From the NCBI GenBank assembly GCA_038727135.1, contig JAVYWL010000003.1, forward strand, positions 96,001-160,000: a stretch of 64,000 nucleotides of DNA. Reading direction: 5' to 3'. This DNA is from Candidatus Bathyarchaeia archaeon. Its GTDB lineage: Archaea > Thermoproteota > Bathyarchaeia > Bathyarchaeales > Bathycorpusculaceae. Under the pieces are notes generated by a model, which made no database searches, was not told the origin of the DNA, and saw only the letters and a program-made list of their open reading frames with translations. A program made the position numbers and the translations under genes. Each line of letters starts with the position of its first letter. Position 1 is the stretch's first letter. Shown piece by piece: positions 1,332 through 43,722 of the stretch.

Positions 1332-1428
1332 TGGCGGGCCCGCCGGGAATTGAACCCGGGACCCCCGGGTTTCTCTGTGCTTTATAGCTTAAAAGCCCGG
1401 TGCTCTATCCTTACTGAGCTACGGGCCC
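1332..1428 (-). tRNA. tRNA-Lys(TTT) with 19-nt intron at 37/38 (1371-1389), CCA encoded
   Basis: GGGCCCG...CCGGG CTTTTA[AGCTATAAAGCACAGAGAA]A CCCGG...GTTCAATTC...CGGGCCC-G-CCA. CUUU/AGAG forms the central helix of a BHB-like motif. Confidence 0.93.
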
Positions 1429-8620: not shown

Positions 8621-8738
8621 ATTACTCCGCTCAAGGTTTAGGGGAGCTGGGCGGTGACCCGGCTGAGAGGACGGCTGAGCGCCGTCGACCCTCAGAACCT
8701 GATCCGGGTAATGCCGGCGGAGGGAAAATGGAGTGAAT
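8621..8738 (+). promoter_or_regulatory. TPP (THI-box) riboswitch upstream of thiC
   Basis: AGGGGAGC...GCTGAGA...GACCC...GAACCTGATCCGGGTAATGCCGGCGGAGGGA matches the TPP aptamer consensus. A BRE/TATA-like GAAAGATAAATATA lies at about 8594-8607. Confidence 0.92.
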
Positions 8739-8803
8739 AGAGGTGCCTTCAAACTTCTCTAAACAAATAATAACGATCTATTCTGGTTTCTGGAGGGTTT
8801 TGA

Positions 8804-12611: not shown

Positions 12612-13373
12612 TATCCTTTCAGGAGCATTGTAGACGTTCATCCGCTTTCCACGAACAAAGCCTATCAACGTTAAATTCGCCCTTTTGGCAACTTCTATGC
12701 CGGAGTCCAGCGCCGCAGCTATTGAGGCGATTATTGGTATGCCAACCCTTGCGGCTTTCAGAGCTATGTCAGCTGTCAGCCTCCCACTTAGGGTTAGGAA
12801 ACATCCGCCGAAGTCCGTCTTTTGTAAGGCGCATTTCCCCACGACTTTATCCACGGCATTGTGACGCCCAACATCCTCTGCAAAAGCCAATAGCGTCCCG
12901 TCAGCCTTGTAGATGGCAGCAGCATGCACTCCACCCGTTTTCCTGAAAGTCCCTGCCATGCGATTTAGGTTGTTAACGCAGTTCTGGACAGTTTCAGCCT
13001 TAACGATTATTTCCGAGTCTACTTTCTTGAGGAATTTTGGTGTTTGAGGCTGGTAAGGCCCTCCGCATGCTGATGGAATTAAACGGGAGAGCCGTCCCGC
13101 AAGTTTTAGGCGAGTTTCAAGGTTTACGCTTGGTTTTAGGTTTACGTGGCATGTGTCCTTTTTAACCGATATTTTTTCGACTTCTTCAACCGCCTTAACT
13201 ATGCCTTCTGCGAGAAGATGTCCCAAAACCAGTTCTTTTAGGTCTTTAGGAGTGCATATTATTGTGGCGTAATGCCTCTTGTTTATGAAAATGTGGATGG
13301 GCTTTTCTTCAGCCACGTAATCCTCGATTTTCTGAAGTTTTTTGGCTTCGGTGTCAATTTTAACTATTTCCAC
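12600..13373 (-). CDS. fdhD: Formate dehydrogenase accessory sulfurtransferase
   Basis: TGGVHAA, EDVGRHNAVDKVVG, LSGR. Confidence 0.92.
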   Translation of the reverse strand: MEIVKIDTEAKKLQKIEDYVAEEKPIHIFINKRHYATIICTPKDLKELVLGHLLAEGIVKAVEEVEKISVKKDTCHVNLKPSVNLETRLKLAGRLSRLIPSACGGPYQPQTPKFLKKVDSEIIVKAETVQNCVNNLNRMAGTFRKTGGVHAAAIYKADGTLLAFAEDVGRHNAVDKVVGKCALQKTDFGGCFLTLSGRLTADIALKAARVGIPIIASIAAALDSGIEVAKRANLTLIGFVRGKRMNVYNAPERILLS

Positions 13374-13398
13374 TTTTGCTAAATTGGATACCCCCTCT

Positions 13399-14277
13399 CT
13401 ATTTTTTCAGCTCCGAAAGCACAAAATCGACTATTTCATCTGCAATATTGACCCTAGTGACGGACTGTAAGCCCTTCCACCCGGGTTGACTGTTAACCTC
13501 CACCACGAGCGGGCCCTTTGGGCTTTCGAGGATGTCCACTCCTGCAATTTTGCATTTTATTAGGTGGGCGGATTTTACGGCTAACTCTTCCAGCTGGCTG
13601 TCAAGCTTTATTGGCTCTGGGCAGGCTCCTTGGCTGTAGTTGGTTTTCCAGCTTTTGGCAACTCGGCGCATGGCGGCAACCACGCGGTCGCCTATAACAA
13701 AGGCGCGGATATCAGAACAGCCGTGAGGGACAAACTCTTGAATGTAGATTACGCCATGATAAAAGGTCACAGCTCTAAAGGCTGTGTAGGCTACTTCCGG
13801 GTCATTTATGCGCGTCGAGCCTATACCCCTAGAGCCGAAAATTGGCTTGAGGACAACGTCTCCGCCAAGCTCATGGAAAGCCTTTAAGGCTTCGTCAGCA
13901 TCCTCAGTGACAGCTGTCCGCGGCACTGGTATGCCAGCATCCTCCAGTATCGCCAGCAAATCGTATTTGTCAACACAGTGTTCAATGGCTTCTGGAGGAT
14001 TAATAACGTAAAAGCCGAGCCTTTCAAGGCGATAAAGCAAGTCCATGCGGAAAACAATCTCCTCCAATGAACCGCGTCCAATTGGGCGAATTATCAGAGC
14101 ATTTAAATCTTTCAAGACATCGACACTGCGAACGTTTAGGTAGGGCTTATAACCAACCCGCGCCACAAGCCATGGAAAGCTAAAACAAACATATGGAATC
14201 TTGCGCCTTGACAATGCTTCACGAAGCTGAGTTGAACTATAAGCGTTGGGATTTCGCGTGACGATGCCAATTTTCAA
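13399..14277 (-). CDS. RimK-family ATP-grasp alpha-L-glutamate ligase (MptN-like)
   Basis: KPIFGSRGIG, DIRAFVIG, WKTN, GVDIL, EVNSQPG; located near mch/fwd. Confidence 0.85.
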   Translation of the reverse strand: MKIGIVTRNPNAYSSTQLREALSRRKIPYVCFSFPWLVARVGYKPYLNVRSVDVLKDLNALIIRPIGRGSLEEIVFRMDLLYRLERLGFYVINPPEAIEHCVDKYDLLAILEDAGIPVPRTAVTEDADEALKAFHELGGDVVLKPIFGSRGIGSTRINDPEVAYTAFRAVTFYHGVIYIQEFVPHGCSDIRAFVIGDRVVAAMRRVAKSWKTNYSQGACPEPIKLDSQLEELAVKSAHLIKCKIAGVDILESPKGPLVVEVNSQPGWKGLQSVTRVNIADEIVDFVLSELKK

Positions 14278-33184: not shown

Positions 33185-33847
33185 TTAAGATGTTTCTGTT
33201 GTGGATTTTTCTGGAAGCGGCACTTGCGGGATCCCTGCCGGAAGCTCTGGGAACTTCTCCTTAATTTTCTGTTCAGCCACAGCTGCAGCCTCAGTAAGTA
33301 TTTTTTGGGCGTCTTCGTTAGCTGTTTCAAAGTTTATGGATAATCCTGTGCTTTGTCCAGCCTCAACTATTATTCCACTTAAAAGGTTGCCTATCTGCCC
33401 CAACTCCCTCTCCGCTTCTGGGAAGATGTTAGCCATTCCAGTTTTTACAGCTCTTAGCACGCTTACTGCAGGTCCAAGAGTTGAAACAACGTCTCCAAGC
33501 TCTGATACTGTGCGTAATCTTAAGACTATTTGTTCAAGGGCAAGCCTAGCCTGCATAATCATCTTTTCCATCTTTCTTATCTCAGCCAACTCGTTGGCAA
33601 AGACATTTGCCCGTGCCATGTCATGCTTTGTGTAAGCATCGACAATTCTTGCAAATATTGACTTGTCTCTCTGGCTGAACCTCTCACTTGCTTGGTCTAA
33701 CTTCTGTATTTGGAGTTCTATGCGGCGGACAGCCATGTCAAGCCTCGGCTTCAACGGACCCGGCGGCCTGACAGCTTCTTTGATGCGCTCTGTTAGTGGT
33801 TGCTCGTCGCGCCTCTCATCCCATCTTCTACTAAACTTTTCGGACAA
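33185..33847 (-). CDS. ESCRT-III (Snf7 family) CdvB paralog; TTG start after GGAGG
   Basis: ANVFANELAEIRK, LEQIVLRLRTV, EDAQKILTEA, FPELP. Confidence 0.9.
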   Translation of the reverse strand: MSEKFSRRWDERRDEQPLTERIKEAVRPPGPLKPRLDMAVRRIELQIQKLDQASERFSQRDKSIFARIVDAYTKHDMARANVFANELAEIRKMEKMIMQARLALEQIVLRLRTVSELGDVVSTLGPAVSVLRAVKTGMANIFPEAERELGQIGNLLSGIIVEAGQSTGLSINFETANEDAQKILTEAAAVAEQKIKEKFPELPAGIPQVPLPEKSTTETS

Positions 33848-34067
33848 GCTTGATTCCTCCAAGAAGAGGCTTAAGGGGCTTGGCAAATCTTTATACATTC
33901 TTAATATGCCCGCATTATCCATGTATATATGTAGAGCTATATGTGCCAGCTGAAACCTTTTTGAGCTTTAATTTTCCAGTGAAAAGAACTCCTTGCCGCT
34001 TTCTCTGAAATAGACAAAAAAGTGTAAGTTAGACTAAAAAGAGGCTTATAATTCAATTCTAGGCTAG

Positions 34068-34295
34068 GTGGAAAAGATGGGCGAAAGATTAAAGGTATTC
34101 CTGTTTGTCGCCATACTGGGATTCATCGCCGGAGTCATAGCTGAACTAACAATTGAATACGTAGTCCCAGCGCTTGCAGCTATACTGCCAGCCATCTTCA
34201 GCGCAAAATACATACTATCGGGACTCGCAGGCGCCTTTCTAACACTCATAATCGTTAGCATATGGGCATACATCACAGGACCAAAAGAACCATAA
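34068..34295 (+). CDS. Small membrane protein, divergent from the cdv operon
   Basis: Two to three hydrophobic helices. Confidence 0.65.
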   Translation: MEKMGERLKVFLFVAILGFIAGVIAELTIEYVVPALAAILPAIFSAKYILSGLAGAFLTLIIVSIWAYITGPKEP

Positions 34296-34361
34296 CTTTC
34301 GAGCTTCCGTTCACCTTTTTACCCTTCCTTCAACGAATTGTTAGTTGATTGTATGGCTTTC

Positions 34362-34423
34362 ATTTTGGACTCAGGAGCGGAAAAAACAATCATCAGTTCA
34401 GCGTACCTCGATGTCATCATCGT
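34362..34423 (-). ncRNA. Box C/D guide sRNA body (promoter and 5' stem displaced to 38788-38830 by the inserted element)
   Basis: ATGATGA(C)-CATCGAGGTACG-CTGA(D')-AC-TGATGA(C')-TTGTTTTTTCCGCTC-CTGA(D)-GTCCAAAAT. The D' guide is complementary to the 23S motif ACCUCGAUG. Confidence 0.85.
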
Positions 34424-34535
34424 ACCGTGAAGATATTTCCCACCAAAACCTAAAAACCTATCGCAAACCCAAACAAAACATAACCACAACATCAAAAACA
34501 ACACCAACCTTCACCAAACCAGAAAAATGGGGGTT

Positions 34536-34853
34536 TTAAGCTGTGGGATATGCTGGAGCATAGAGGCTCCTATTGCTGTTTACGCATTTAACCCTCTGGT
34601 CTGCTGGCAAAACGCAACCCTCAAGCCTAACACCGTCAAAGTTTACACATGTAACACAAGCCTTCTCCCTGACAAGCCTAGAAACATGCCTCTTTAAGGC
34701 TTCCAAAAGCTCAAACACCTGCTGAGGCTTCAAAGATACATCAACGCCATGCCAAACATTCTCCTTATCGCTGTACTCAACGGCTAAAAGCTGAAGGTCT
34801 AAGCCGACGCTCTCAATGTAAAGCCTTCCAATACGAACAACCTCTTTAACCAT
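34536..34853 (-). CDS. Element-encoded hypothetical protein with Cys cluster
   Basis: ORF with upstream GGTGG RBS; CVTC...C...C. Confidence 0.65.
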   Translation of the reverse strand: MVKEVVRIGRLYIESVGLDLQLLAVEYSDKENVWHGVDVSLKPQQVFELLEALKRHVSRLVREKACVTCVNFDGVRLEGCVLPADQRVKCVNSNRSLYAPAYPTA

Positions 34854-34896
34854 CTTTTTCCACCAAGTAGAATATTCTCCACAGTAGTATATAAAC

Positions 34897-34915
34897 TTTT
34901 CTACCTAGTAGAAAA
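34897..34915. promoter_or_regulatory. Inverted-repeat operator between divergent TATA-like boxes
   Basis: TTTTCTAC-CTA-GTAGAAAA is a perfect 8-bp inverted repeat; extra AGTAG/CTACT half-sites lie nearby. Confidence 0.55.
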
Positions 34916-34958
34916 ATATAAATATTCCAATCCATCTACTTCAAAATAGGAGAAAACC

Positions 34959-35111
34959 ATGAAAAGCATAAAAGTTGAAGATGATATTTACGTAGAACTT
35001 CTAAAACTAAAAGCATCCCTAACAGCCAAAGACGGCAAAACAAGAACCTTCACACAAGCCATAAAAGAACTTATCGAACACTACAAAAAACACCAAAAAG
35101 AGGAAAAATGA
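34959..35111 (+). CDS. 50-aa ribbon-helix-helix (CopG/VapB-like) protein (not in the ORF track)
   Basis: MKSIKVEDDIYVELLKLKASLTAKDGKTRTFTQAIKELIEHYKKHQKEEK; AGGAG RBS. Confidence 0.75.
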   Translation: MKSIKVEDDIYVELLKLKASLTAKDGKTRTFTQAIKELIEHYKKHQKEEK

Positions 35112-35115
35112 AACC

Positions 35116-35298
35116 ATGAGCTTCCCTGAAGGCATACTATGGGGAATAGGCTACAAGGAAGCAACCCAACACCTAAAACGTAAACCCAAAGTCATCTGCC
35201 ACAACTGCGGACACATCTACTATGCAAAGCTTGACAAATGTCCAAAATGCCACCATCCAAATGAAGACAAAAACCAACCCGCCTATTGGATAACCTAA
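35116..35298 (+). CDS. Small zinc-ribbon protein
   Basis: CHNC...CPKC; starts 4 nt after the RHH stop; GAGG RBS. Confidence 0.65.
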   Translation: MSFPEGILWGIGYKEATQHLKRKPKVICHNCGHIYYAKLDKCPKCHHPNEDKNQPAYWIT

Positions 35299-35446
35299 CA
35301 AACCCAACCTAGACCAAACCACAACAAAAACCCACAACCTTTTCCCACATTAAACAAGGAAACAAAAACACCACCAAACCACACACCCAAAAACCAAAAA
35401 CAACCACAAACCAAACAAAAAGAAACCACACCACAACCCAGTGTAC

Positions 35447-35494
35447 TATCTCTACACATATATACTTAAATTTAAGTATATATGTGTAGAGATA
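35447..35494. repeat. Perfect 48-bp palindrome inside an imperfect inverted repeat of about 200 bp
   Basis: TATCTCTACACATATATACTTAAA|TTTAAGTATATATGTGTAGAGATA. Confidence 0.97.
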
Positions 35495-35708
35495 CTCTAT
35501 TTCGATGTAGTTTTGGTTCATGTTGTTGTGGTTTGGGTTTTGGTTGTGGTTTTGTGGTTTTTTGTTGGTTTGGTGGGGGGTTATGTAGGCTGATTGTTTC
35601 TGTATTGGATATTACGCTTTCATTAACTTTGGTGAAGGTTGGTTGGGTGGGGCTGTTTTGTGTGGGTTGGGTTGCTTGATTTGTTCAAGTAGCTGGAGCT
35701 TGAAATGT

Positions 35709-36179
35709 TCAAGTTGGGGGTTTGGGTTGTTTTAGGGTTTGGTATTCGCTTCTTAGTGTGTCTAGGTTTTGGAAGGTGTTGAGGATGAGTAGTTCGAGTT
35801 TGCTTATGATGTTTGGGTCTAGTTTGCGGGGTTCTGCGTAAACCTTTTCGTAGTAGTCGAGGATGAGGTCTATGCGTTGTTGGATTTGTTCTGGTTTGTC
35901 CCATTTTAGGCGGTTGACACAGTATTCGAATATGTCATGCATGGTTTTGAAGACGAAGCCTACGTATGTGGTTATTAGGTAGCTTCTGCCTTCGAGGCTT
36001 CCTAAGAGGTCTAAAGTGGAATAATGTAGGTAATGTTTAACATATTCTCGAAAACTTCTTGCTTTTTGGATGGCTTCTTGTCTTCTTAGAAGGCTGTATT
36101 GAACATAGTATTCTTTCAGTTTTTGGGCTGTGAGCTCGTTTAGCCTATGCAGGTCTTCAGGTTTAATCTCTCTATACAT
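35709..36179 (-). CDS. Element-encoded hypothetical helical protein
   Basis: 156-aa ORF with TATA-like TTTAAATA upstream. Confidence 0.65.
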   Translation of the reverse strand: MYREIKPEDLHRLNELTAQKLKEYYVQYSLLRRQEAIQKARSFREYVKHYLHYSTLDLLGSLEGRSYLITTYVGFVFKTMHDIFEYCVNRLKWDKPEQIQQRIDLILDYYEKVYAEPRKLDPNIISKLELLILNTFQNLDTLRSEYQTLKQPKPPT

Positions 36180-36285
36180 ATGCGAAAAAGTTTAAACTCT
36201 GATATTTAAAGTTTATATTTGCCTATATATCTTTAAACATTACTAAAGAGAATATAGGTTTAAGCATGGGGGAACGTCTCAGGGG

Positions 36286-36510
36286 ATGGCTGTAAGCTCG
36301 ACAATTCCAAAACATATGTTGAAAAGGTTGCTCCTCGACAAGCTTAAAAGCCTAGAAAAGAGGGTTTGCTTCATGTGTAGTTTTCAAAACGCCAGAAGCC
36401 CAATAACCAGAAGGCTTGCATGTAGAAAATGCGAGGTTAAAAAGGGCTTCAGAGAAGTTAGAAAACTGATTTACCAAACTTACCATTTAAGGTCTAAACA
36501 AAAACGGTGA
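36286..36510 (+). CDS. Element-encoded small basic Zn-binding protein
   Basis: CFMC...CRKC. Confidence 0.55.
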   Translation: MAVSSTIPKHMLKRLLLDKLKSLEKRVCFMCSFQNARSPITRRLACRKCEVKKGFREVRKLIYQTYHLRSKQKR

Positions 36511-36775
36511 GCCTCTTCTCCCAAATAAAATTTGGACAGTTAATGCATTTAACCTTAAACATGCATGAAGGATTAACCTCACGAACCATTGGAAGATTGA
36601 TATAGCGTCTTTTCAAAGTGCAATATGGCATCGACCTACCCCTCTCAACCATAACAACTAAAGTGTAGCCTCGACGTCTTCCACCACCACCCCTAAACAC
36701 CCTCCTAGAAGCTCGATAAACATCACCCACAAGCTCCTCCAAAACCCTAACCTCAGGCAAACCAACAACCCCCAA
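36494..36775 (-). CDS. Element-encoded small basic Cys-containing protein
   Basis: YCTLKRR...C...CINC; follows the 36786 gene. Confidence 0.5.
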   Translation of the reverse strand: MGVVGLPEVRVLEELVGDVYRASRRVFRGGGGRRRGYTLVVMVERGRSMPYCTLKRRYINLPMVREVNPSCMFKVKCINCPNFIWEKRLTVFV

Positions 36776-36785
36776 AAGTTATTTT

Positions 36786-37388
36786 TTAACGGTCACCCTC
36801 CTCAGACAACTTCAAAGTAAACTCACGGCATTTCAAATTCGGGCACCCAAAACAATCGTTCAGGGGTAACCTCTCCAAAGCGACATGCTCATTTCTCAGA
36901 CCACAATACCAGCTCCCCCCACCCAATACAACAACATTCTTACTATAACGCCTAGGCCGACTCTGAACGTATTGCTCAAATCTCACTTCATCAACCTTAA
37001 TAGGCGACTCAATTAACCGCCTCAAAGTATTGCCGTAAGCATGCTTTTCTAATGTTGTTTTTAGCACGTGTAATGCCATGTATTTTTGGAGGATTTTGCA
37101 AGCAGACTCTTTTTTTTCCTTAACAACCAAATTGAAGGCTTTTCTAAGGTTTTCTGGACAATCAAAGCTTACATGAACGATTTTTCCGCCAAACAAGTCT
37201 TTAAAATGCTCCTCGAAAAGTCCATCAAAAAGCATGCTAAAAGCACTACTTTGATCCGTTTGTTTGTTACGTTTTCTGGTTTTGGCTTTGGCGTGATTGA
37301 TTACTCTTATCGTCTCATGTATTGCGATAATGTATTTAGCTCGATTGTTACAAAAAGATTTATAAGGGTTTAATAGGTTCTTGTACAT
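36786..37388 (-). CDS. Element-encoded protein with RHH-like segment and C-terminal Zn finger
   Basis: VHVSFDCPENLRKAFNLVVKEKKESACKILQKYM; WYC...CFGCPNLKC. Confidence 0.6.
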   Translation of the reverse strand: MYKNLLNPYKSFCNNRAKYIIAIHETIRVINHAKAKTRKRNKQTDQSSAFSMLFDGLFEEHFKDLFGGKIVHVSFDCPENLRKAFNLVVKEKKESACKILQKYMALHVLKTTLEKHAYGNTLRRLIESPIKVDEVRFEQYVQSRPRRYSKNVVVLGGGSWYCGLRNEHVALERLPLNDCFGCPNLKCREFTLKLSEEGDR

Positions 37389-37569
37389 GTGGGGACGCCA
37401 CCCCTTTTTTCAGAGTTTTTATTATGTATTTGAATTTTTAAAGTTTTTGGGTTTTTTGGGTTTCTTTTGTGGTTTTGGGTTTTTAATGGGTTTATAGTTG
37501 CATAATAGGATAGTAATATGGTAGTTTTTTGAAAATAACCGCTTTTCTGGCTTATTACATGTGTAAGTT

Positions 37570-38700
37570 TTAGGCTGTGCCTTTCAGTAGTTCTGGATGC
37601 TTCTTATAGAACTCTATTAGGAATTGCATCATGTCTGTTTTCTTTAAGGTCTCGATTATTGTTAGGGCTTCTTCATATCTTTTCTGCATTTGGTTGAGTT
37701 GGTTTCTTAGTTTCTCGATTTCGGCTCTCTGTTCTTCTATTAGCCTTTCAACGTGTGTGGGTTGGTATAGCCTTAGGCTTTCATATCCTTTCTTGTATAG
37801 TTGCCTATGATATTCTGGGTCTGTGCTTAGGTAGTGGGTTGCTGTGCTTGTGTGTCCCATCCAAAACTCAACGTAGGCTGAGTCTATTGCTGAAGCCATA
37901 AACTTGCGGAAAGCCTTTCTTAGGCAGTAGAGCCTTAAAGGTTTAGGCTTTTTGCCTTGAGCCTCGACAAGCTTGAGCTTCTTGACGTAAACGTTGAACC
38001 TTTGGCTCATGGCTTGAGCCGTGAGCTTCTGGTTTGCAGGCTTCTCAGTTACAAAAACATAATCATCATCCTTTAAAGGCAACCTATGAGCCAGATAGGT
38101 CTTTAAAGCCTTAACTCCATCCTCGCCTATAAAAGTCCACCTTTGGCTAACCCTACACTTCAAAATGTCTGGAGTCAAGTCTATACGCATGGGAACGTTG
38201 CCAAAATCGTTTTTGATATGCTTCCACTTCAAATTAGCCAAGGTTTCAGGTCTCATTCCACTTTCATAAAGGATAAGCCAAATCGCCCTATCCCTAACAT
38301 CTGAGTTATCCAGAATAAGCCTAAGCTCATCCTTAGTTATGTCCCTGTTATGATAAACAATATACGGATACCTAATCCTTAAAGGCTTAGCTGGAATGTC
38401 AAAGGCATGGAGAAAACTCATTATGGTGCTCATTCTCCGCTTAACACTTAAAGGTGTAAGCCTACCCTTCAACAAGGCAAAATAATCCCTAAGAACATCG
38501 TTAAGCTCATCCAAAAACCTCTCCCTAGAGGCTTCACCATTATATTTGGCTTCCCTCCATTTCTGAGGCAAAACCTTAACATCTAAACCATAATTCTCAA
38601 AAACCCACCTCTCAAACTCCAAAATGTCTTGACGATAACGCCTCTTAGTGTTCTCGCTCTCCGTAACTTGGCTAAGCCAAACCTCATAAACGTCCCGCAT
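37570..38700 (-). CDS. Tyrosine integrase with C-terminal coiled coil (ATG at 38700; the frame is open to a TTG at 38793)
   Basis: ESGMRPETL, LYCLRKAF, WMGH, THY. GGAGG RBS and TTTATATA lie upstream of the ATG at 38700. Confidence 0.9.
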   Translation of the reverse strand: MRDVYEVWLSQVTESENTKRRYRQDILEFERWVFENYGLDVKVLPQKWREAKYNGEASRERFLDELNDVLRDYFALLKGRLTPLSVKRRMSTIMSFLHAFDIPAKPLRIRYPYIVYHNRDITKDELRLILDNSDVRDRAIWLILYESGMRPETLANLKWKHIKNDFGNVPMRIDLTPDILKCRVSQRWTFIGEDGVKALKTYLAHRLPLKDDDYVFVTEKPANQKLTAQAMSQRFNVYVKKLKLVEAQGKKPKPLRLYCLRKAFRKFMASAIDSAYVEFWMGHTSTATHYLSTDPEYHRQLYKKGYESLRLYQPTHVERLIEEQRAEIEKLRNQLNQMQKRYEEALTIIETLKKTDMMQFLIEFYKKHPELLKGTA

Positions 38701-38787
38701 AAGGCTTAACCCCTCCGAAAATAGCTTAAGAAGGCTCCCCCTATATAAATCTTCACTATATTGTGAAAATTCCTCGATCTCTTCATC

Positions 38788-38830
38788 GTCCAAAATAACA
38801 AAGTGTTAACGAAATTATTTATGTTTTTCA
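38788..38830 (-). promoter_or_regulatory. Displaced host promoter and 5' stem arm of the C/D sRNA
   Basis: BRE/TATA-like GAAAAACATAAATA lies about 20-25 nt upstream of ATTTTGGAC, the exact complement of the GTCCAAAAT that follows box D at 34362-34370. Confidence 0.65.
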
Positions 38831-38839
38831 AAACGTTTT

Positions 38840-39367
38840 ATGTGTGGAAGGTGCGGAAAATCTTTGGAAGGAAGCCATATTAAAAATTATCGTTTAAGGC
38901 TTGAGAACGCCTCGAGTTATAGTGACATATGGGAGGTTGTTAAGGACACTGTTGCCTTTTCCTTAAACCAGCGGAGGGCTGGAATAATGCTTTTCCTTGA
39001 CGACTTGCCCATACAGTTGGGAGCTTACCACCCCATTGGAACAAACAACATTGTTTTGAACAGCATCCTTGTTAGGGCTGTTGAAGCCTCTACAAATTCG
39101 AAGCGTGTTGTAAACGCCTTAATCTATAATCTGCTTCTCCACGAATATCTCCATGCCTTAGGGCATGTCTCGGAATTGAAGGTTAGGCAGCTGGTATATT
39201 ATATTGCAAGAGAGTGCTTTGGCGAGGAACACATAGCCACAGCCATAGCCAAAAGCAGCCCGTGGGCTTTGCTGAAGAGCATACCCCTGGACAAGGCATT
39301 TCACGCCAGACGAGTCATGGAAATTGTTAAGGACTTTGAGAAGACGGACCAAAAATACATAGTTTAG
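38840..39367 (+). CDS. Hypothetical HExxH zincin-like protein
   Basis: LLHEYLHALG. Confidence 0.7.
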   Translation: MCGRCGKSLEGSHIKNYRLRLENASSYSDIWEVVKDTVAFSLNQRRAGIMLFLDDLPIQLGAYHPIGTNNIVLNSILVRAVEASTNSKRVVNALIYNLLLHEYLHALGHVSELKVRQLVYYIARECFGEEHIATAIAKSSPWALLKSIPLDKAFHARRVMEIVKDFEKTDQKYIV

Positions 39368-39385
39368 GAAGGGCGAATGCAAATT

Positions 39386-40219
39386 ATGTGCGGCATATTT
39401 GGCTACATACTGAAAAAGCCGATAGAAGTCGCATACGCCTTAAAAGTTCTTCAGAAACTTGAGAGGCATCAATACCCAAACGAGCCAAAACCCGTTGGGG
39501 GCTACGGTGCCGGAATAGCCATCTTCACAAGCTCTGGAATGGTGTTGCTTGAAAAAGTTGGAAAGGTTGATGGTCCACCAGCGGAACACTTGGCTAAAAC
39601 ATGCAAGTTTGACACAGCATCGGTTTTGATTGGACATGTGCGGTTGCCAAGCCCATGGTTTATGGAAACAGCCCATTTTAGGGAGACAGCCCAACCATAT
39701 GTTGTGCAGTGTTTTTCTGGCTTAACGGTGATTTCAGCCCACAACGGAAACGTGACAAACTATAAGGCTATTCGAGAAAGGCTTAGCGGAAAACACCTTT
39801 TCGAGTCCGAGAGAGCTGAGCTTATAGACTCCGAAGTTATACCACACTTGTTTGAAGAGCTTCTACTCGAGAAAGGCTGCCCAGAAGAAGCCCTAAACAC
39901 GCTTTACTTAGCCGTAGATGGACCAAACACCATAAGCCTCCTTCAAATCGAGAAAGGGCGAACGCTTCTACATTTCCTTCATAAGGGGAAGACGAGAGGC
40001 TTAACTATATGGAAAAATAGGAGAGGCGAAGTTATTTTCTGTTCGAGAAAAGAACCGTTGATGGAAACGCTGGGCTTTTTCCTTGATAAAGGCAATTTTG
40101 TGGAGCATTTGTCCATCCCGCATGACAAAGAGGGAAACTTTAAAGTAACCTTCACTTTTAGTCTAAGGGAAAAGCTATTAGGACGGAGCCAAAAATGTTC
40201 AGAGAAATGTCACAGTTGA
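39386..40219 (+). CDS. Class II (Ntn) glutamine amidotransferase domain protein
   Basis: MCGIFG start, GHVR, HNG, IDSEV. Confidence 0.8.
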   Translation: MCGIFGYILKKPIEVAYALKVLQKLERHQYPNEPKPVGGYGAGIAIFTSSGMVLLEKVGKVDGPPAEHLAKTCKFDTASVLIGHVRLPSPWFMETAHFRETAQPYVVQCFSGLTVISAHNGNVTNYKAIRERLSGKHLFESERAELIDSEVIPHLFEELLLEKGCPEEALNTLYLAVDGPNTISLLQIEKGRTLLHFLHKGKTRGLTIWKNRRGEVIFCSRKEPLMETLGFFLDKGNFVEHLSIPHDKEGNFKVTFTFSLREKLLGRSQKCSEKCHS

Positions 40220-40758
40220 ACAAATATTTACGTCAAGACGAGAAGATTTTATGGAGCGGCAAGCCAGAAATCGTACCCTTCATATTTTCGGGGTATGCGG
40301 GTTTTTCCCTCTTCGGGTTTGTCTGGCTTATTTTTGTACTCATCATGATTATGTCGGTGCCCGTAACTGGCGCGCCATCTCCATTCATGTTTTTTGCAGC
40401 GTTCTTTATCCTATCCGGATTATGCATAATTATAGGTCCACTAACAGCTGAGCTTTTGAGGTACAGAAACACTGAATACGCGATCACAAATCAACGGCTC
40501 ATAGCACAAACAGGGGTCATAGGACTAGACACAAGATTCGTTGAACTAGACAAAATCCAAGAAGTTTACGTGACTGTCGGTTTGCTGGATAAAATTTATG
40601 GAACTGGGTCAATCATTGCAGTTACTGCTGGCTATGTTCCAGTTGGAACCCCAAGCCCTCATGGAGTATTAGTGCGTCCAGCGTTTAGGGCTATAAAAAA
40701 CCCATACGAGGTTCAGAGGCTTCTCCAAGAAGCCATAAGGGGAAGGAGCAGCCCCTAA
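40207..40758 (+). CDS. Membrane protein with bacterial-type PH domain
   Basis: EKILWSGKP, two TMs, YAITNQRL, YGTGSI. Confidence 0.75.
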   Translation: MSQLNKYLRQDEKILWSGKPEIVPFIFSGYAGFSLFGFVWLIFVLIMIMSVPVTGAPSPFMFFAAFFILSGLCIIIGPLTAELLRYRNTEYAITNQRLIAQTGVIGLDTRFVELDKIQEVYVTVGLLDKIYGTGSIIAVTAGYVPVGTPSPHGVLVRPAFRAIKNPYEVQRLLQEAIRGRSSP

Positions 40759-40776
40759 AAGCCCAGCAAAGGATAA

Positions 40777-43722
40777 GTGAATGAGACGGTCAAAAAGTAT
40801 TGGCGAAACAAGATAATGAAGGAAACCGTCGACCAAGATGTTTTCAAACTTCTCGCCAAGCCAATTCAAGAGGGGCTGGCTGAGCTTGGTTTTTCAAAGC
40901 CTACTTTACCACAAGTTTTGGCTGTCCCCCATATTCTAGCCGGAGAAAATGTTCTTTTGATTGCGCCAACTGGAAGCGGCAAAACAGAAGCTGTCCTTCT
41001 GCCAGTTTTCTCAAACTTTATTCAGCATAAGGAAAAGAAGGGCATAGGGATTGTTTATGTCACGCCTTTAAGGGCTTTAAACCGTGACCTTTTAAAGCGC
41101 CTATCTTTTTGGGCTTCAAGACTCGACATAACCGTCGAGGTTAGGCATGGCGACACGGAGCTGAGGCTACGGAGAAAGCAAGCCATTTCGCCGCCCAACA
41201 TGCTTGTAACAACGCCGGAAACTCTTCAGGCGGTTCTTTCAGGCGCCCGCATGAAGGAACACTTGAGACATGTTAGGTGGGTGGTTATAGACGAGGTGCA
41301 TGAACTTGCCTCCAGCAAGCGTGGAACCCAATTGACGGTGGCTCTTGAACGCCTATGCGATATTGCTGGTAAAGAGTTTCAGAGGATAGGCTTATCAGCC
41401 ACTGTTGGAAATCCGGGGAGGGTTGCCCAATTCATAGCTGGAACAAACAGAAACATAAGAGTTGTTCAAGCTTCACTTTCTAAAGGCTATAGGTACACTG
41501 TTGAGTATCCAGCGCCAACAGAAGCCGATTACGAGTTAGCTGGGAAGATTGGCATTTCGCCAGAAGGCGCCGCCAGAATAAGGCGCATAGCCGAGCTTAT
41601 TGACAGCCACAAGTCCACGCTCATATTTGTGAACAGCAGAACAGTGGCAGAAATGCTTGGGCATCGCTTCACCCAGCTTGGAAGAGGCGACATAGCCGTT
41701 CATCATGGCTCCTTGTCGAAGGAGGAACGCATCCAAATTGAGGACGACTTTAAGGCTGGAGTTTTGAAGGCTATAATTTGCACGAGCACATTGGAGCTTG
41801 GCATAGACATAGGAAGCGTAGACCTAGTCATCCAATACCTTTCGCCGAGGCAAGTTTCCAGCCTAATCCAAAGGGTTGGAAGAAGCGGACACCGCTTGGA
41901 TATGCTCTCCGAAGGCGTGATAGTTACAGCTTTTCCAGACGACTTGCTGGAGTCTTTGGCTGCTGTTAAAAGCGCCTGCCATGGCAGAATTGAGCCGGTT
42001 TTAATTCATGAAAATGCCTTGGACGTTTTAGCTCATCAAGTTGCTGGCATACTTATGGACAAGGAGAGCATAACCATAGACGAACTTTTGGCTTTGCTCC
42101 GAAGGGCCTACCCATATAGGCGTCTTACTAAACAAAAACTTTTGAGGGTAGTACACTTTTTAGCCAGCCTCAACCAATTAAAATTTGACGAGGAAAAGGT
42201 TTTGAGGAAAACGCGGAAGATAAGGGACTACTACTACGAGAACCTCTCAATGATTCCGGATGAGAGACGCTACCCAATAATAAACATTCTAACAGATAGA
42301 CGAATCGGCACACTTGGCGACGAATTTATGGCTTTAAAAGCCCGAGTAGGCTTAAATATCATCGTCCGCGGAAAAGTTTGGCGCATAGTTCAGATTGAGG
42401 ATGAAACTGGCACAGTTTATGTAGTTCCATCTGAAGAGCCGTTTGCCGCCATCCCAGGATGGGATGGTGAAATGCTGCCGGTTCCCTTCGATCTAGCCCA
42501 AGAAACTGGAAGACTACGCCAAGAAATTGGCGAACTGCTGAAAACTTTTGAAAACGCCGACGTAGTGGCGGAAAAGGTTGCTGAGAAGTTCAACATAAAC
42601 AGGGAGATGCTAAACGAGGTTGTTAGGGAGATCGAGGAGCATATAAGGCAAGGAGCACCCTTGCCAACACATAACCACATTCTCATCGAGGCGTTTGACA
42701 AGTATTTGGTGGTGCACGCTTGTTTCGGCGAGATTGTAAACAGCACCCTTGGAGGCATTTTCGACGCGATACTTTCAGACAAAGAGCTTATTGTTGGCTG
42801 GTGGAACGACGGCTACCGCATACTAATTGAGGCCCCGCGAAAAATCTCGCCAATAGAAGTTGAGAAGATGCCAGAAACGCTTTTCAGCTTAAATGATGAG
42901 CAAGTTGAAGAAGCCTTCAAGGATTATTTGGAGGCAAAGTTCCCATACGCTTACAAAATGAAGTTCGTGGCTGAAAGGTTCGGCGCCCTCCCAAGGGGAA
43001 AAACTATGGGTCCAAAGAGGCAGAACCAACTGCCAGCCATTTTCAAGGGAACACCAATTTATGATGAGACTTTAAGGGAAGCTATGCTCGAGAAAGCCGA
43101 CCTAGAAAAAGTTAAGGAAATTATGCGAAATATTAAACGTGGAAAAATTAAGGTTAGTACACTGTATAGGGCGGAAAATCCAACACCACTAGCCTACCAT
43201 ATTTTGGCTAAGTATGGCGACGTTTCAGAGCTTATGGCTCCGGAGCGCATCCTACTAAGCAACATCGAAAAGATGAAAAGGGCAATAGATGCGAAGATGG
43301 CGGCGCTAATGTGTATCGAATGCGGAGAATTATCTGAAAAGAAGGTTAAAGAATGGCCAGACCACCCCACATGTGGAAAATGCGGTTCAAGGCTTTTGGC
43401 ATTGCTGCATCCAGGTCAAGAGGCGAAACGTCTCCAAGAGATACTAGGTAAAAGGCGCATGGGCAAAAGCCTAACAGAGGAAGAGCTTAAGAAGATAGCC
43501 CATGCAAGGCGCACAGCCGACCTGATTCTAAGCTATGGAAAGAAGGCGATAATAGCCCTAAAAGTTAAAGGTGTAGGGCCAGAAACAGCCTTCAGAATTC
43601 TCTGTAAAATGCACCCCAGCGAAGGGGAGTTCTACATGGACCTTTTAAAGGCGAAAATCCAATACTTGAAGACAAGGGAGTTCTGGGAAGACAAAGAAAA
43701 CCGTTTAAAAACCTTCACCTAG
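40777..43722 (+). CDS. Lhr-family SF2 helicase
   Basis: APTGSGKT, DEVH, SAT, HHGSLS, QRVGRSGH; C-terminal Zn finger and HhH. Confidence 0.9.
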   Translation: MNETVKKYWRNKIMKETVDQDVFKLLAKPIQEGLAELGFSKPTLPQVLAVPHILAGENVLLIAPTGSGKTEAVLLPVFSNFIQHKEKKGIGIVYVTPLRALNRDLLKRLSFWASRLDITVEVRHGDTELRLRRKQAISPPNMLVTTPETLQAVLSGARMKEHLRHVRWVVIDEVHELASSKRGTQLTVALERLCDIAGKEFQRIGLSATVGNPGRVAQFIAGTNRNIRVVQASLSKGYRYTVEYPAPTEADYELAGKIGISPEGAARIRRIAELIDSHKSTLIFVNSRTVAEMLGHRFTQLGRGDIAVHHGSLSKEERIQIEDDFKAGVLKAIICTSTLELGIDIGSVDLVIQYLSPRQVSSLIQRVGRSGHRLDMLSEGVIVTAFPDDLLESLAAVKSACHGRIEPVLIHENALDVLAHQVAGILMDKESITIDELLALLRRAYPYRRLTKQKLLRVVHFLASLNQLKFDEEKVLRKTRKIRDYYYENLSMIPDERRYPIINILTDRRIGTLGDEFMALKARVGLNIIVRGKVWRIVQIEDETGTVYVVPSEEPFAAIPGWDGEMLPVPFDLAQETGRLRQEIGELLKTFENADVVAEKVAEKFNINREMLNEVVREIEEHIRQGAPLPTHNHILIEAFDKYLVVHACFGEIVNSTLGGIFDAILSDKELIVGWWNDGYRILIEAPRKISPIEVEKMPETLFSLNDEQVEEAFKDYLEAKFPYAYKMKFVAERFGALPRGKTMGPKRQNQLPAIFKGTPIYDETLREAMLEKADLEKVKEIMRNIKRGKIKVSTLYRAENPTPLAYHILAKYGDVSELMAPERILLSNIEKMKRAIDAKMAALMCIECGELSEKKVKEWPDHPTCGKCGSRLLALLHPGQEAKRLQEILGKRRMGKSLTEEELKKIAHARRTADLILSYGKKAIIALKVKGVGPETAFRILCKMHPSEGEFYMDLLKAKIQYLKTREFWEDKENRLKTFT

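Follow-up and report, generated by a model that had tools for sequence, protein, structure and literature searches.

That mobile elements integrate site-specifically into genes for stable RNAs is textbook knowledge. Bacterial islands and prophages integrate in ssrA, the gene for transfer-messenger RNA (tmRNA), or in other small RNA genes, usually at the 3′ end. They are the nearest precedent outside tRNA genes and resemble the locus described here in that a stable RNA gene other than a tRNA gene serves as attB for a tyrosine integrase, and differ from it in the domain of life and in the class of RNA, a guide-RNA function being found only in the present target. That target is a gene for a box C/D small RNA (sRNA), interrupted by a 4,366-bp integrative element within a 64,000-nt stretch of the genome of a Candidatus Bathyarchaeia archaeon (contig JAVYWL010000003.1, positions 96,001 to 160,000), referred to below as the window. 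Among archaeal elements, the closest in design are the pTN3-like elements of Thermococcales, which use the 5′ half of a tRNA gene as attB and in which the restored gene is driven from element sequence (PMC8371274). The likeness to the window extends to the tyrosine recombinase, the small stable RNA gene as attB and the element copy that restores an uninterrupted gene (PMC8371274). In the window, by contrast, the target is a box C/D guide and not a tRNA, the integrase lies at the junction that keeps the host promoter, and the copy is imperfect, with the C box made canonical and one guide nucleotide changed. SSV-type integrases, in which attP lies inside the integrase open reading frame (ORF) and integration splits the gene (PMC7253208), are likewise archaeal tyrosine recombinases of small integrative elements, but the integrase gene in the window stays whole. 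A survey of thaumarchaeal elements lists 39 tRNA, 15 intergenic and 14 protein-gene targets (PMC6563490).

The RNA itself also has described counterparts. The box C/D sRNAs of the Pyrococcus and Pyrobaculum sR families have targets that cluster around the peptidyl-transferase centre in domain V (PMC6009581, PMC7994747). The interrupted RNA shares with these families the C-D′-C′-D order, the 12-nt spacers, the short terminal stem and the dual guides to nearby rRNA sites (PMC6009581, PMC7994747); it differs from them in its C box (AUGAAGA) and C′ box (AUGAUUG), in lying outside Rfam and in coming from Bathyarchaeia. In Pyrobaculum, elements resembling miniature inverted-repeat transposable elements, and resembling C/D sRNAs, also link mobile DNA with C/D sRNA-like sequences, but these are short repeats without an integrase, and the sRNA gene is not their attachment site (PMC6009581).

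The locus in the window is very probably the product of an integrase-catalysed, site-specific insertion into a dual-guide sRNA gene, with strand exchange in the sequence ATCGAGG and with the sRNA rebuilt by the incoming element. In the mechanism proposed, a cryptic integrative element of 4,366 bp has inserted into a single-copy gene for a box C/D sRNA, within its 5′ part, recombination being catalysed by the element's own classical (non-split) tyrosine integrase. Strands would be exchanged in the 7-bp ATCGAGG within the D′ guide. The attP site would carry 18 bp that imitate the sRNA from its inner stem through the C box to the start of the guide, and integration would rebuild a complete sRNA at the left junction, with a canonical C box and one extra guide–target base pair, and without the host promoter or outer stem. 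The host promoter and the native C box would be left pointing into the integrase gene. In sister elements only a 9-bp core is retained, and an entire replacement sRNA gene is carried instead.

A first-pass annotation of the window, made from the letters alone, had proposed a mobile element with a tyrosine integrase inside a box C/D sRNA gene, a proposal borne out by the junctions, by a PF00589 match and by empty sites in relatives. Written 5′ to 3′ along the minus strand, the right junction is AAAAACATAAATA...TTATTTTGG-ACGATGA-AGAGATCGAGG, with ACGATGA at 38789-38783, and the left junction reads ATATCTTCACGGT-ACGATGA-TGACATCGAGGTACG CTGA AC TGATGA ... CTGA GTCCAAAAT, with ACGATGA at 34423-34417. 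The junction strings and the spacing of 4,366 bp between the two ACGATGA copies had been reported correctly. The repeat, given as 7 bp, is in fact an imperfect direct repeat of 18 bp, ACGATGA[A/T]GA[G/C]ATCGAGG, at 38789-38772 and 34423-34406. Written in three blocks on the same strand, the right junction is ...GAAAAACATAAATAATTTCGTTAACACTTTGTTATTTTGG-ACGATGAAGAGATCGAGG-AATTTTCACAATATAGTGAAG... and the left junction ...GGAAATATCTTCACGGT-ACGATGATGACATCGAGG-TACGCTGAACTGATGATTGTTTTTTCCGCTCCTGAGTCCAAAAT.

Empty sites were sought with the left flank (33185-34430) as query against 41 related genomes; sampled genomes are designated G### (G000 being that of the window) and fetched loci L###. The flank was matched in full in 11 same-genus genomes, and homology starts in them at query position 8, the first A of ACGATGA (34423). 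It is apparent that both flanks of the window are contiguous in 10 of these 11 loci, one aligned block ending at 34423 and the next starting at 38772 with an overlap of 18 bp; in the eleventh, L006, the upstream flank differs. The sRNA is intact in all 11, as the first-pass annotation had predicted for a site from which the element was absent. Because the flanks are joined in relatives with an 18-bp overlap, the element with one repeat copy measures 4,366 bp (34406..38771, minus strand, from the alignment of the flanks to same-genus loci). Direct repeats thus stand at both ends and the empty site of the relatives holds one repeat copy, as expected of attL and attR, and these comparisons demonstrate the insertion, its boundaries and the empty site. 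The element was found in one of the 13 genomes of the genus, which suggests that it was gained recently. Its G+C content is 35-43%, against 44-50% in the flanks. A second insertion or deletion polymorphism lies beside it: 38953-42815 (3.9 kb) is missing from the syntenic same-genus locus L011, in which 38952 is followed directly by 42816.

The 11 relatives also bear on the point of exchange. At the first variable position of the repeat they carry A (10) or G (1), with A at the right junction and T at the left; at the second they carry A (6) or G (5), with G at the right junction and C at the left. The T at 34416 and the C at 34413 are present in none of them. The base after ATCGAGG is T in all 11 relatives and at the left junction and A at the right junction, and the stem reads GGAC in all 11 and at the right junction and GGTAC, with an extra T, at the left. 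Since the right junction is host-like up to ATCGAGG and the left junction host-like after it, strand exchange would fall within this 7-bp sequence, inside the D′ guide, and not in ACGATGA, where it had been placed at first. The left copy of this putative strand-exchange region lies at 34406..34412 (minus strand) and is flanked by positions that discriminate attB from attP. The predicted attB would read ...GGAC GATGAAGAG ATCGAGG TACG... and the predicted attP ...CTTCAC GGTAC GATGATGAC ATCGAGG AATTTTCAC.... ATCGAGG(TA) is the sole block common to the junction pairs of the window and of L021, L076, L079, L082 and L084; the block shared between junctions is ATCGAGGTA (9 bp) in the last four of these loci and ATGAGAAAATCGAGGTA in L021 (a 17-bp repeat).

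The architecture of the target RNA was derived from an alignment of 16 copies, 10 from the same genus, 2 from other chromosomal contexts and 4 borne by elements. The 5′ part consists of the terminal stem GGAC/GTCC, one G, the C box AUGAAGA and a 12-nt D′ guide, GAUCGAGGUACG; the 3′ part consists of the D′ box CUGA (AUGA or AAGA in some copies), a short loop, the C′ box AUGAUUN, a 12-nt D guide, CUUUUUCCGCUC, and the D box CUGA. Box order and both 12-nt spacers are constant throughout the alignment, the internal boxes being degenerate in some lineages. A C box near the 5′ end, a D box near the 3′ end and a terminal stem are thus all found, with AUGAAGA as one departure from RUGAUGA. The arms of the stem in the window, ATTTTGGAC (38796-38788) and GTCCAAAAT (34370-34362), are perfectly complementary over 9 bp and are parted by the insertion, as previously noted. 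Double changes occur at 3 of 7 stem pairs (12 cells), a level of covariation reached by none of 500 shuffles, and 88% of cells are paired. Spacers of 15 nt, initially proposed, came from overlapping UGAUGA strings taken as boxes, and the D guide parsed in that way had no target in the large-subunit (LSU) rRNA; realignment of the boxes to 12-nt guides led to both rRNA targets being found.

Upstream of the stem by about 23 nt lies AAAACATAAATAATTT (38812..38827, minus strand), which resembles a B recognition element and TATA box. The identical string stands ahead of the intact sRNA in 9 of 10 relatives compared, the exception being L006, and its position and conservation point to a role as the host sRNA promoter. 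Genes for fibrillarin (PF01269, 329 bits) and Nop5 (PF01798, 262 bits) are adjacent on contig C2. The strict C-N-D′-N-C′-N-D pattern occurs at only two places on both strands of the 1.55-Mb genome, one of which is the left junction; the arrangement seen here is far from anything that chance would produce. The other, at about 535980 (+) of contig C1, has the stem TGAAGCC/GGCTTCA, then GAUGAUG..., D′ CUGA, C′ GUGACGA and D CUGA, and this candidate sRNA has the same kink-turn layout (stem, GAU, GA) as the interrupted one. A covariance model (R1) built from the 16-copy alignment detected the sRNA in 68 of 151 genomes of the order. Within the family to which the window belongs it was present in 33 of 35 genomes, and within a second family in 26 of 34, a single copy being the usual number; intact copies in other genomes scored 29-76 bits, all but one of them 41-76. 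Five genomes (G035, G045, G068, G142 and G144; loci L123-L133) hold two or three full-length copies on different contigs, and no integrase of the family was found within the fetched flanks of these multi-copy loci; the additional copies may be paralogues, duplicates between strains or remnants of old elements. Directly downstream of the sRNA in the window, at 33185-33922 (-), is a gene of the Snf7/ESCRT-III family (PF03357, 2.1e-06); a 71%-identical DNA stretch lies on the small contig C6.

Guide targets were sought in the complete rRNAs of the same-genus genome G005, with Escherichia coli numbering taken from an alignment with rrlH. The native D′ guide forms 10 contiguous Watson-Crick base pairs with GGUACCUCGAUG of the LSU rRNA (G005 2635-2646), which places the N+5 nucleotide at E. 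coli C2498. The D guide forms 10 Watson-Crick pairs and one G-U pair with CAGCGGGAAAAG (G005 2187-2198), with N+5 at E. coli 2051. Both positions are in the central loop of domain V, the peptidyl-transferase region, and C2498 carries a natural 2′-O-methyl group in E. coli (Cm2498). The pairing of the D′ guide was equalled by 61 of 20,000 shuffled guides. In the genome of the window itself, this D′ target is found unchanged in the LSU fragment that closes contig C3. With its boxes and targets observed in this way, the interrupted RNA is in all probability a genuine dual methylation guide. ATCGAGG is conserved and would be kept from drifting by its complementarity to a universally conserved rRNA sequence, and a guide constrained by rRNA would give a stable, single-copy target across hosts, by the same logic as tRNA genes; the difference from tRNA targeting is that exchange is in an antisense guide, which the rRNA target, and not the fold of the guide RNA itself, holds constant. 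As the D′ target lies inside the 23S gene, the 9-bp att core occurs there too, as its complement. The rRNA operon is split over three contig ends in this assembly (the last 200 bases of C3, on the minus strand, the end of C1 and the start of C2), and the LSU 3′ part with the D′ guide target, GGTACCTCGATGTCGG, ends contig C3.

Integration has left parts of the sRNA at both ends of the element. At the right junction, a host 5′ fragment (38772..38796, minus strand) comprises the stem ATTTTGGAC, the C box AUGAAGA (38786-38780) and the core (38778-38772). Still present on this side are the host promoter, the 5′ stem with its outer and inner parts, the native C box and the opening 8 nt of the D′ guide, fused to the P′ arm of the element and to the integrase gene, at which the host sRNA promoter (38812..38827) is now directed. 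Over GGACGATGAAGAGATCGAGG the fragment agrees letter for letter with the intact L003 sRNA, and it gives a 5′-fragment match of 19.8 bits to R1.

The left junction is collinear with the relatives from 34423 downwards and holds a chimeric element/host sRNA (34362..34431, minus strand), which matches R1 over its full length (68.5 bits, E 3.8e-17, positions 1-70 of 70) with three outer stem pairs broken. Its 5′ part is an element-derived mimic (34413..34426, minus strand) with a GG(T)AC inner stem, one G, the canonical C box AUGAUGA (34420-34414) and the first guide nucleotide, C. The remainder is host sequence (34362..34405, minus strand) and contains the end of the D′ guide, the D′ box CUGA (34401-34398), the C′ box AUGAUUG (34393-34387), the D guide UUUUUUCCGCUC (34386-34375), the D box CUGA (34374-34371) and the 3′ stem GUCCAAAAU (34370-34362). 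The sole change to the guide, G to C, extends the pairing with rRNA from 10 to 11 contiguous bp. Most of the sRNA is separated from the host promoter by the insertion, and a T-rich box in the far-end arm of the element, TAGGTTTTTA, is suggested as a candidate substitute promoter; it stands 24 nt before the stem, a spacing that matches that of the host TATA box. The rebuilt sRNA may be expressed and active, and the element may still be excised at the present day.

The integrase (37570..38700, minus strand) is a tyrosine recombinase of 376 aa from the ATG at 38700, as judged from PF00589, PHROG matches and the starts of its homologues, and is a single-copy gene in the window genome. It matches PF00589 with an E value of 3.3e-15 (56.7 bits; cut-off 27.1) over residues 152-319 of a 407-aa reading, and phrog_1, 'integrase', with an E value of 4.5e-25. 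In the 407-aa numbering, R181, K212, W311, H320 and Y321 are invariant across 17 integrase homologues; the HxxR position reads YCLR, and R292 is replaced by K in 2 of the 17. The catalytic roles of these conserved residues are predicted from the alignment. A longer ORF from a TTG at 38793 was rejected as an artefact of read-through across the att site, most homologues beginning at aligned M34, and the upstream 'extension' varies among homologues with their junction. A split, SSV-type integrase, with the TTG-38793 ORF and the ORF 34507-34319 as its halves, was also rejected: the frames are one base out of register across the shared ACGATGA, and the same homologue starts at M34 rule it out. The core (38778-38772) lies upstream of ATG 38700, about 72 nt before the conserved start, and the gene is whole.

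The association between integrase and sRNA recurs outside the window. Homologues of the integrase numbered 237 in the protein collection, and the 15 GTDB contigs with homologous integrases all belong to Bathyarchaeia or Thermoproteota. The 260 nt upstream of the integrase were classified at 95 loci, 15 from genomes and 80 from metagenomes. Parts of the same sRNA abut the integrase at 15 loci, spread over two clades of integrases and four or more host backgrounds, which answers affirmatively the first-pass suggestion that flanks of homologues be scanned for C/D motifs and demonstrates recurrence across integrases. At 12 of them (L021, L036, L040, L048, L051, L061, L062, L075, L076, L079, L082 and L084) the 5′ part of the sRNA (stem, C box, ...ATCGAGG) stands against the P′ arm, and at 3 (L039, L052 and L053) the reverse complement of the 3′ part is upstream of the integrase. 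Nine further loci (L041, L042, L044, L057, L060, L071, L073, L102 and L105) have the core only, in a P-core-P′ setting; by an estimate, about 1.7 loci would be expected to carry the 7-mer core by chance. The 3′ ends of tRNA genes were flagged by pattern upstream of the integrase at 4 loci (by eye L069, L095 and L100), and the remaining 67 had other upstream sequence or too little sequence. In L051, a complete sRNA is followed by an attP-like site. In L053 and L039, which are oppositely oriented, 12 nt separate the arm half-site GTGAAG from the D′ box that follows it in the 3′ part of the host sRNA (GUGAAGU, 12 nt and UUGA in L053), and the candidate integrase-binding motif may double as a C box there.

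A maximum-likelihood tree was built from 91 integrases, after five short ORFs had been dropped. The sRNA-linked integrases fall in two supported clades, A (23 rows, support 100, including the window) and B (19 rows, support 97), and the tRNA-linked integrases lie between them. The promoter string of the window is found upstream of three integrase lineages, those of the window, L061/L062 and L076. In L036 the integrase gene is 96% identical in DNA sequence and occupies the same site in a different host flank, with partly different cargo; a near-identical integrase in a different host flank indicates recent horizontal movement. Four clade A loci (L042, L057, L060 and L105) have an attP-like site of the form CTTCAC-CATAACGTGA-NGTT-ATCGAGG-TAT-CTTCAC..., and a complete sRNA lies upstream of the integrase by 4.8 kb in L057 and 1.6 kb in L060; the boundaries of these elements not being definable, all four were counted among the loci with the core only. 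The clade A element L021 (6.1 kb) has ABC-transporter cargo and a junction of the imitation type. At 13092-13420 of this locus there are three tandem sRNA 3′ parts, two of them preceded by the same 35-nt element arm to form 110-bp units, and these units look like scars of earlier integrations at the same site.

Elements of clade B appear to deal with the host gene differently. Both junctions are present on single contigs in L076, L079, L082 and L084, with a repeat of only 9 bp. The left junction lacks a C box in this clade, so that here the host sRNA really is divided in two. Three of the four (L076, L082 and L084) have a complete sRNA gene of their own directly within the P-arm end, L079 being without one, and L073 and L022 also carry one. 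The positions of these genes are 5061-5128 in L076, 6057-6127 (-) in L082, 4825-4895 (-) in L084, 9770-9844 in L022 and the contig start in L073. It is apparent that the element-borne sRNAs have the two guides of the host, together with a different, self-consistent stem, GAGGC/GCCTC, and an upstream A/T-rich box, and occur in either orientation. L073 has an uninterrupted P-core-P′ site beside its own sRNA gene, which would represent either a free form or a tandem junction. That these elements are specialised on a single guide RNA, docking on a guide constrained by rRNA and taking over its production, whether by rebuilding it (window, L021) or from a gene of their own (L076, L082, L084, L073 and L022), is a tentative proposal to which we give slightly less than an even chance.

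Several observations weigh against the reading preferred here, that of a site-specific insertion with exchange in ATCGAGG and a rebuilt sRNA. The genome of the window comes from a metagenome-type assembly with 7 contigs (1.55 Mb; completeness 94.7%, contamination 2.3%). There is no sign of the sRNA at 71 of the 95 integrase loci, some of which use tRNA 3′ ends; the integrases of L037 and L038 are 76-78% identical to that of the window and yet have other upstream sequence; and the integrase family was found in 15 of 151 species genomes from the order, with an adjoining sRNA only in G000. No terminal overlaps, as of circular contigs, were found among the 95 loci, and the integrase is without any relative in IMG/VR, so the element cannot be called a virus. 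For the rebuilt sRNA, the promoter candidate amounts to no more than a suitably spaced T-rich box, and the stop codon of the ORF 34853-34536 is followed by oligo-T runs, which makes simple read-through into the sRNA unlikely. As to the crossover, two base changes within 4 bp since integration could mimic the pattern observed. In the first-pass version, recombination across ACGATGA leaves an attP of ATATCTTCA-N8-TGAAGAGAT and a native guide, TGACATCGAGG, and integration, by taking promoter and 5′ stem away from the guide, would switch methylation on or off. ACGATGA is an exact 7-bp repeat at which the homology of the relatives begins, and the TGAC guide pairs one base further with rRNA and would be a plausible native guide. 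Such a guide would, however, differ from all 11 relatives at two of four bases, and the letters of the relatives at the two variable positions are those of the right junction. The other elements share only ATCGAGG(TA) between their junctions, with no ACGATGA in the P arm. The inverted arms do match at 8 of 9 positions, given an ACGATGA crossover, but would not constitute attP if exchange was in ATCGAGG, TGAAGAGAT then being host sequence. Similarly, the guide was indeed cut from its promoter, but not from a 5′ stem: GG(T)AC and a canonical C box come with the element, and the copy at the left junction still has a stem and matches the model over its full length. Recombination across ACGATGA is accordingly considered very unlikely.

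It is also improbable that the insert is a fixed, dead remnant whose association with the sRNA is a historical accident of one lineage and not active targeting. Neither a circular form nor an attP of the window element was seen among the 95 loci or in IMG/VR, its cargo has no assigned function and it is present in a single genome of the genus, all of which would suit a remnant. The last of these facts speaks of recent gain, however, and the integrase ORF is intact and retains the residues invariant across 17 homologues. The 96%-identical gene at the same site in another host background, the insertion of at least three integrase lineages in the sRNA of hosts with the window's promoter string and the intact attP of a sister element in L073 likewise argue for targeting. 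A different objection concerns the RNA: the conserved 70-nt unit might be another non-coding element, such as a promoter-leader or a protein-binding site, that happens to resemble C/D boxes. A search of the whole window with Rfam gave no family for the sRNA and reported only a signal recognition particle RNA, a thiamine pyrophosphate (TPP) riboswitch and two tRNAs; the C box departs from RUGAUGA, and some lineages have degenerate D′ and C′ boxes. The covariation in the stem comes from a small number of independent lineages, and the pairing of the D guide, equalled by 30 of 1,000 shuffles (3%), is only moderately unlikely. Against this objection, each 12-nt spacer can pair with domain V and sets its fifth nucleotide against a conserved position, the stem covaries, the kink-turn layout reappears in another candidate sRNA of this genome, a conserved TATA-like box belongs to the unit itself and the genome encodes the C/D proteins. 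A non-guide identity is therefore regarded as highly improbable.

The remaining features of the element are its arms and cargo. From a reading of the sequence, the arm beside the integrase (P′; 38741..38771, minus strand) contains the palindrome TTCAC-N6-GTGAA at 38767-38752, presumed to be a binding site for the integrase or a regulator, and the TATA-like ATTTATATA at 38750-38742, presumed to be the integrase promoter. A block of CTTCAC-N6-GTGAAG and ATTTATATA recurs upstream of many clade A integrases (L036, L037, L042, L043, L044, L057, L060 and L105). The far-end arm (P; 34427..34460, minus strand) has the half-site CTTCAC at 34432-34427 and the T-rich, TATA-like TAGGTTTTTA at 34460-34451. 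Four cargo ORFs lie on the minus strand between 34536 and 37388 (36786-37388, 200 aa; 36494-36775, 93 aa; 35709-36179, 156 aa; 34536-34853, 105 aa), and the ORF list includes three possible plus-strand ORFs (36286-36510, 34959-35111 and 35116-35298). The cargo ORFs gave no Pfam match above curated cut-offs, no PHROGs function and no Atlas lead. Sub-threshold matches were to PF13012 (E 0.0096, below cut-off) and to phrog_29394 (unknown function, E 0.0025); a weak VapB-like match (E 0.0015, below cut-off) and zinc-ribbon matches on plus-strand ORFs do not give a function. Several cargo ORFs are kept in the related element L036, with 30-93% aa identity. Elsewhere in the window, a TPP riboswitch aptamer is present at 8630-8742 (+) (RF00059, 70.4 bits; gathering score 54.3), and a 97-nt tRNA at 1332-1428 (-) (Rfam 59.8 bits, without anticodon assignment by ARAGORN) adjoins tRNA-Pro(GGG) at 931-1009 and probably contains an intron.

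The use of a C/D sRNA gene as an attachment site was not described in the full-text literature searched on the target class, in agreement with the first-pass annotation, which knew of no such element. In excerpt, the words 'sRNA' and 'snoRNA' are both absent from the review on archaeal tyrosine recombinases (PMC8371274), and a paper on Bathyarchaeia viruses gives no att sites (PMC10541130). What is new is therefore the target class, a C/D guide gene, and the way in which the damage is compensated; integration into stable RNA genes is known. The 15 'intergenic' targets of the thaumarchaeal survey may include unrecognised sRNA targets (PMC6563490), and 'intergenic' attachment sites in archaeal surveys generally may hide unannotated sRNA genes. 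The att core provides a handle for finding such elements in metagenomes, and the integrase with its target of about 20 bp is a possible recombination tool for uncultured Thermoproteota.

For the biology of these archaea, an antisense guide frozen by its rRNA target would make a landing site as dependable as a tRNA gene. There would be two ways to spare the host, namely to imitate the displaced C box and stem or to bring a spare guide RNA gene, and the element-borne C/D guide genes are the first indication of their kind that we have met. If the integrated state does place the integrase under a strong sRNA promoter, regulation of the element would be coupled to ribosome biogenesis. If the element-borne or rebuilt copies are active, mobile elements would encode and control the modification of host rRNA at C2498 and 2051.

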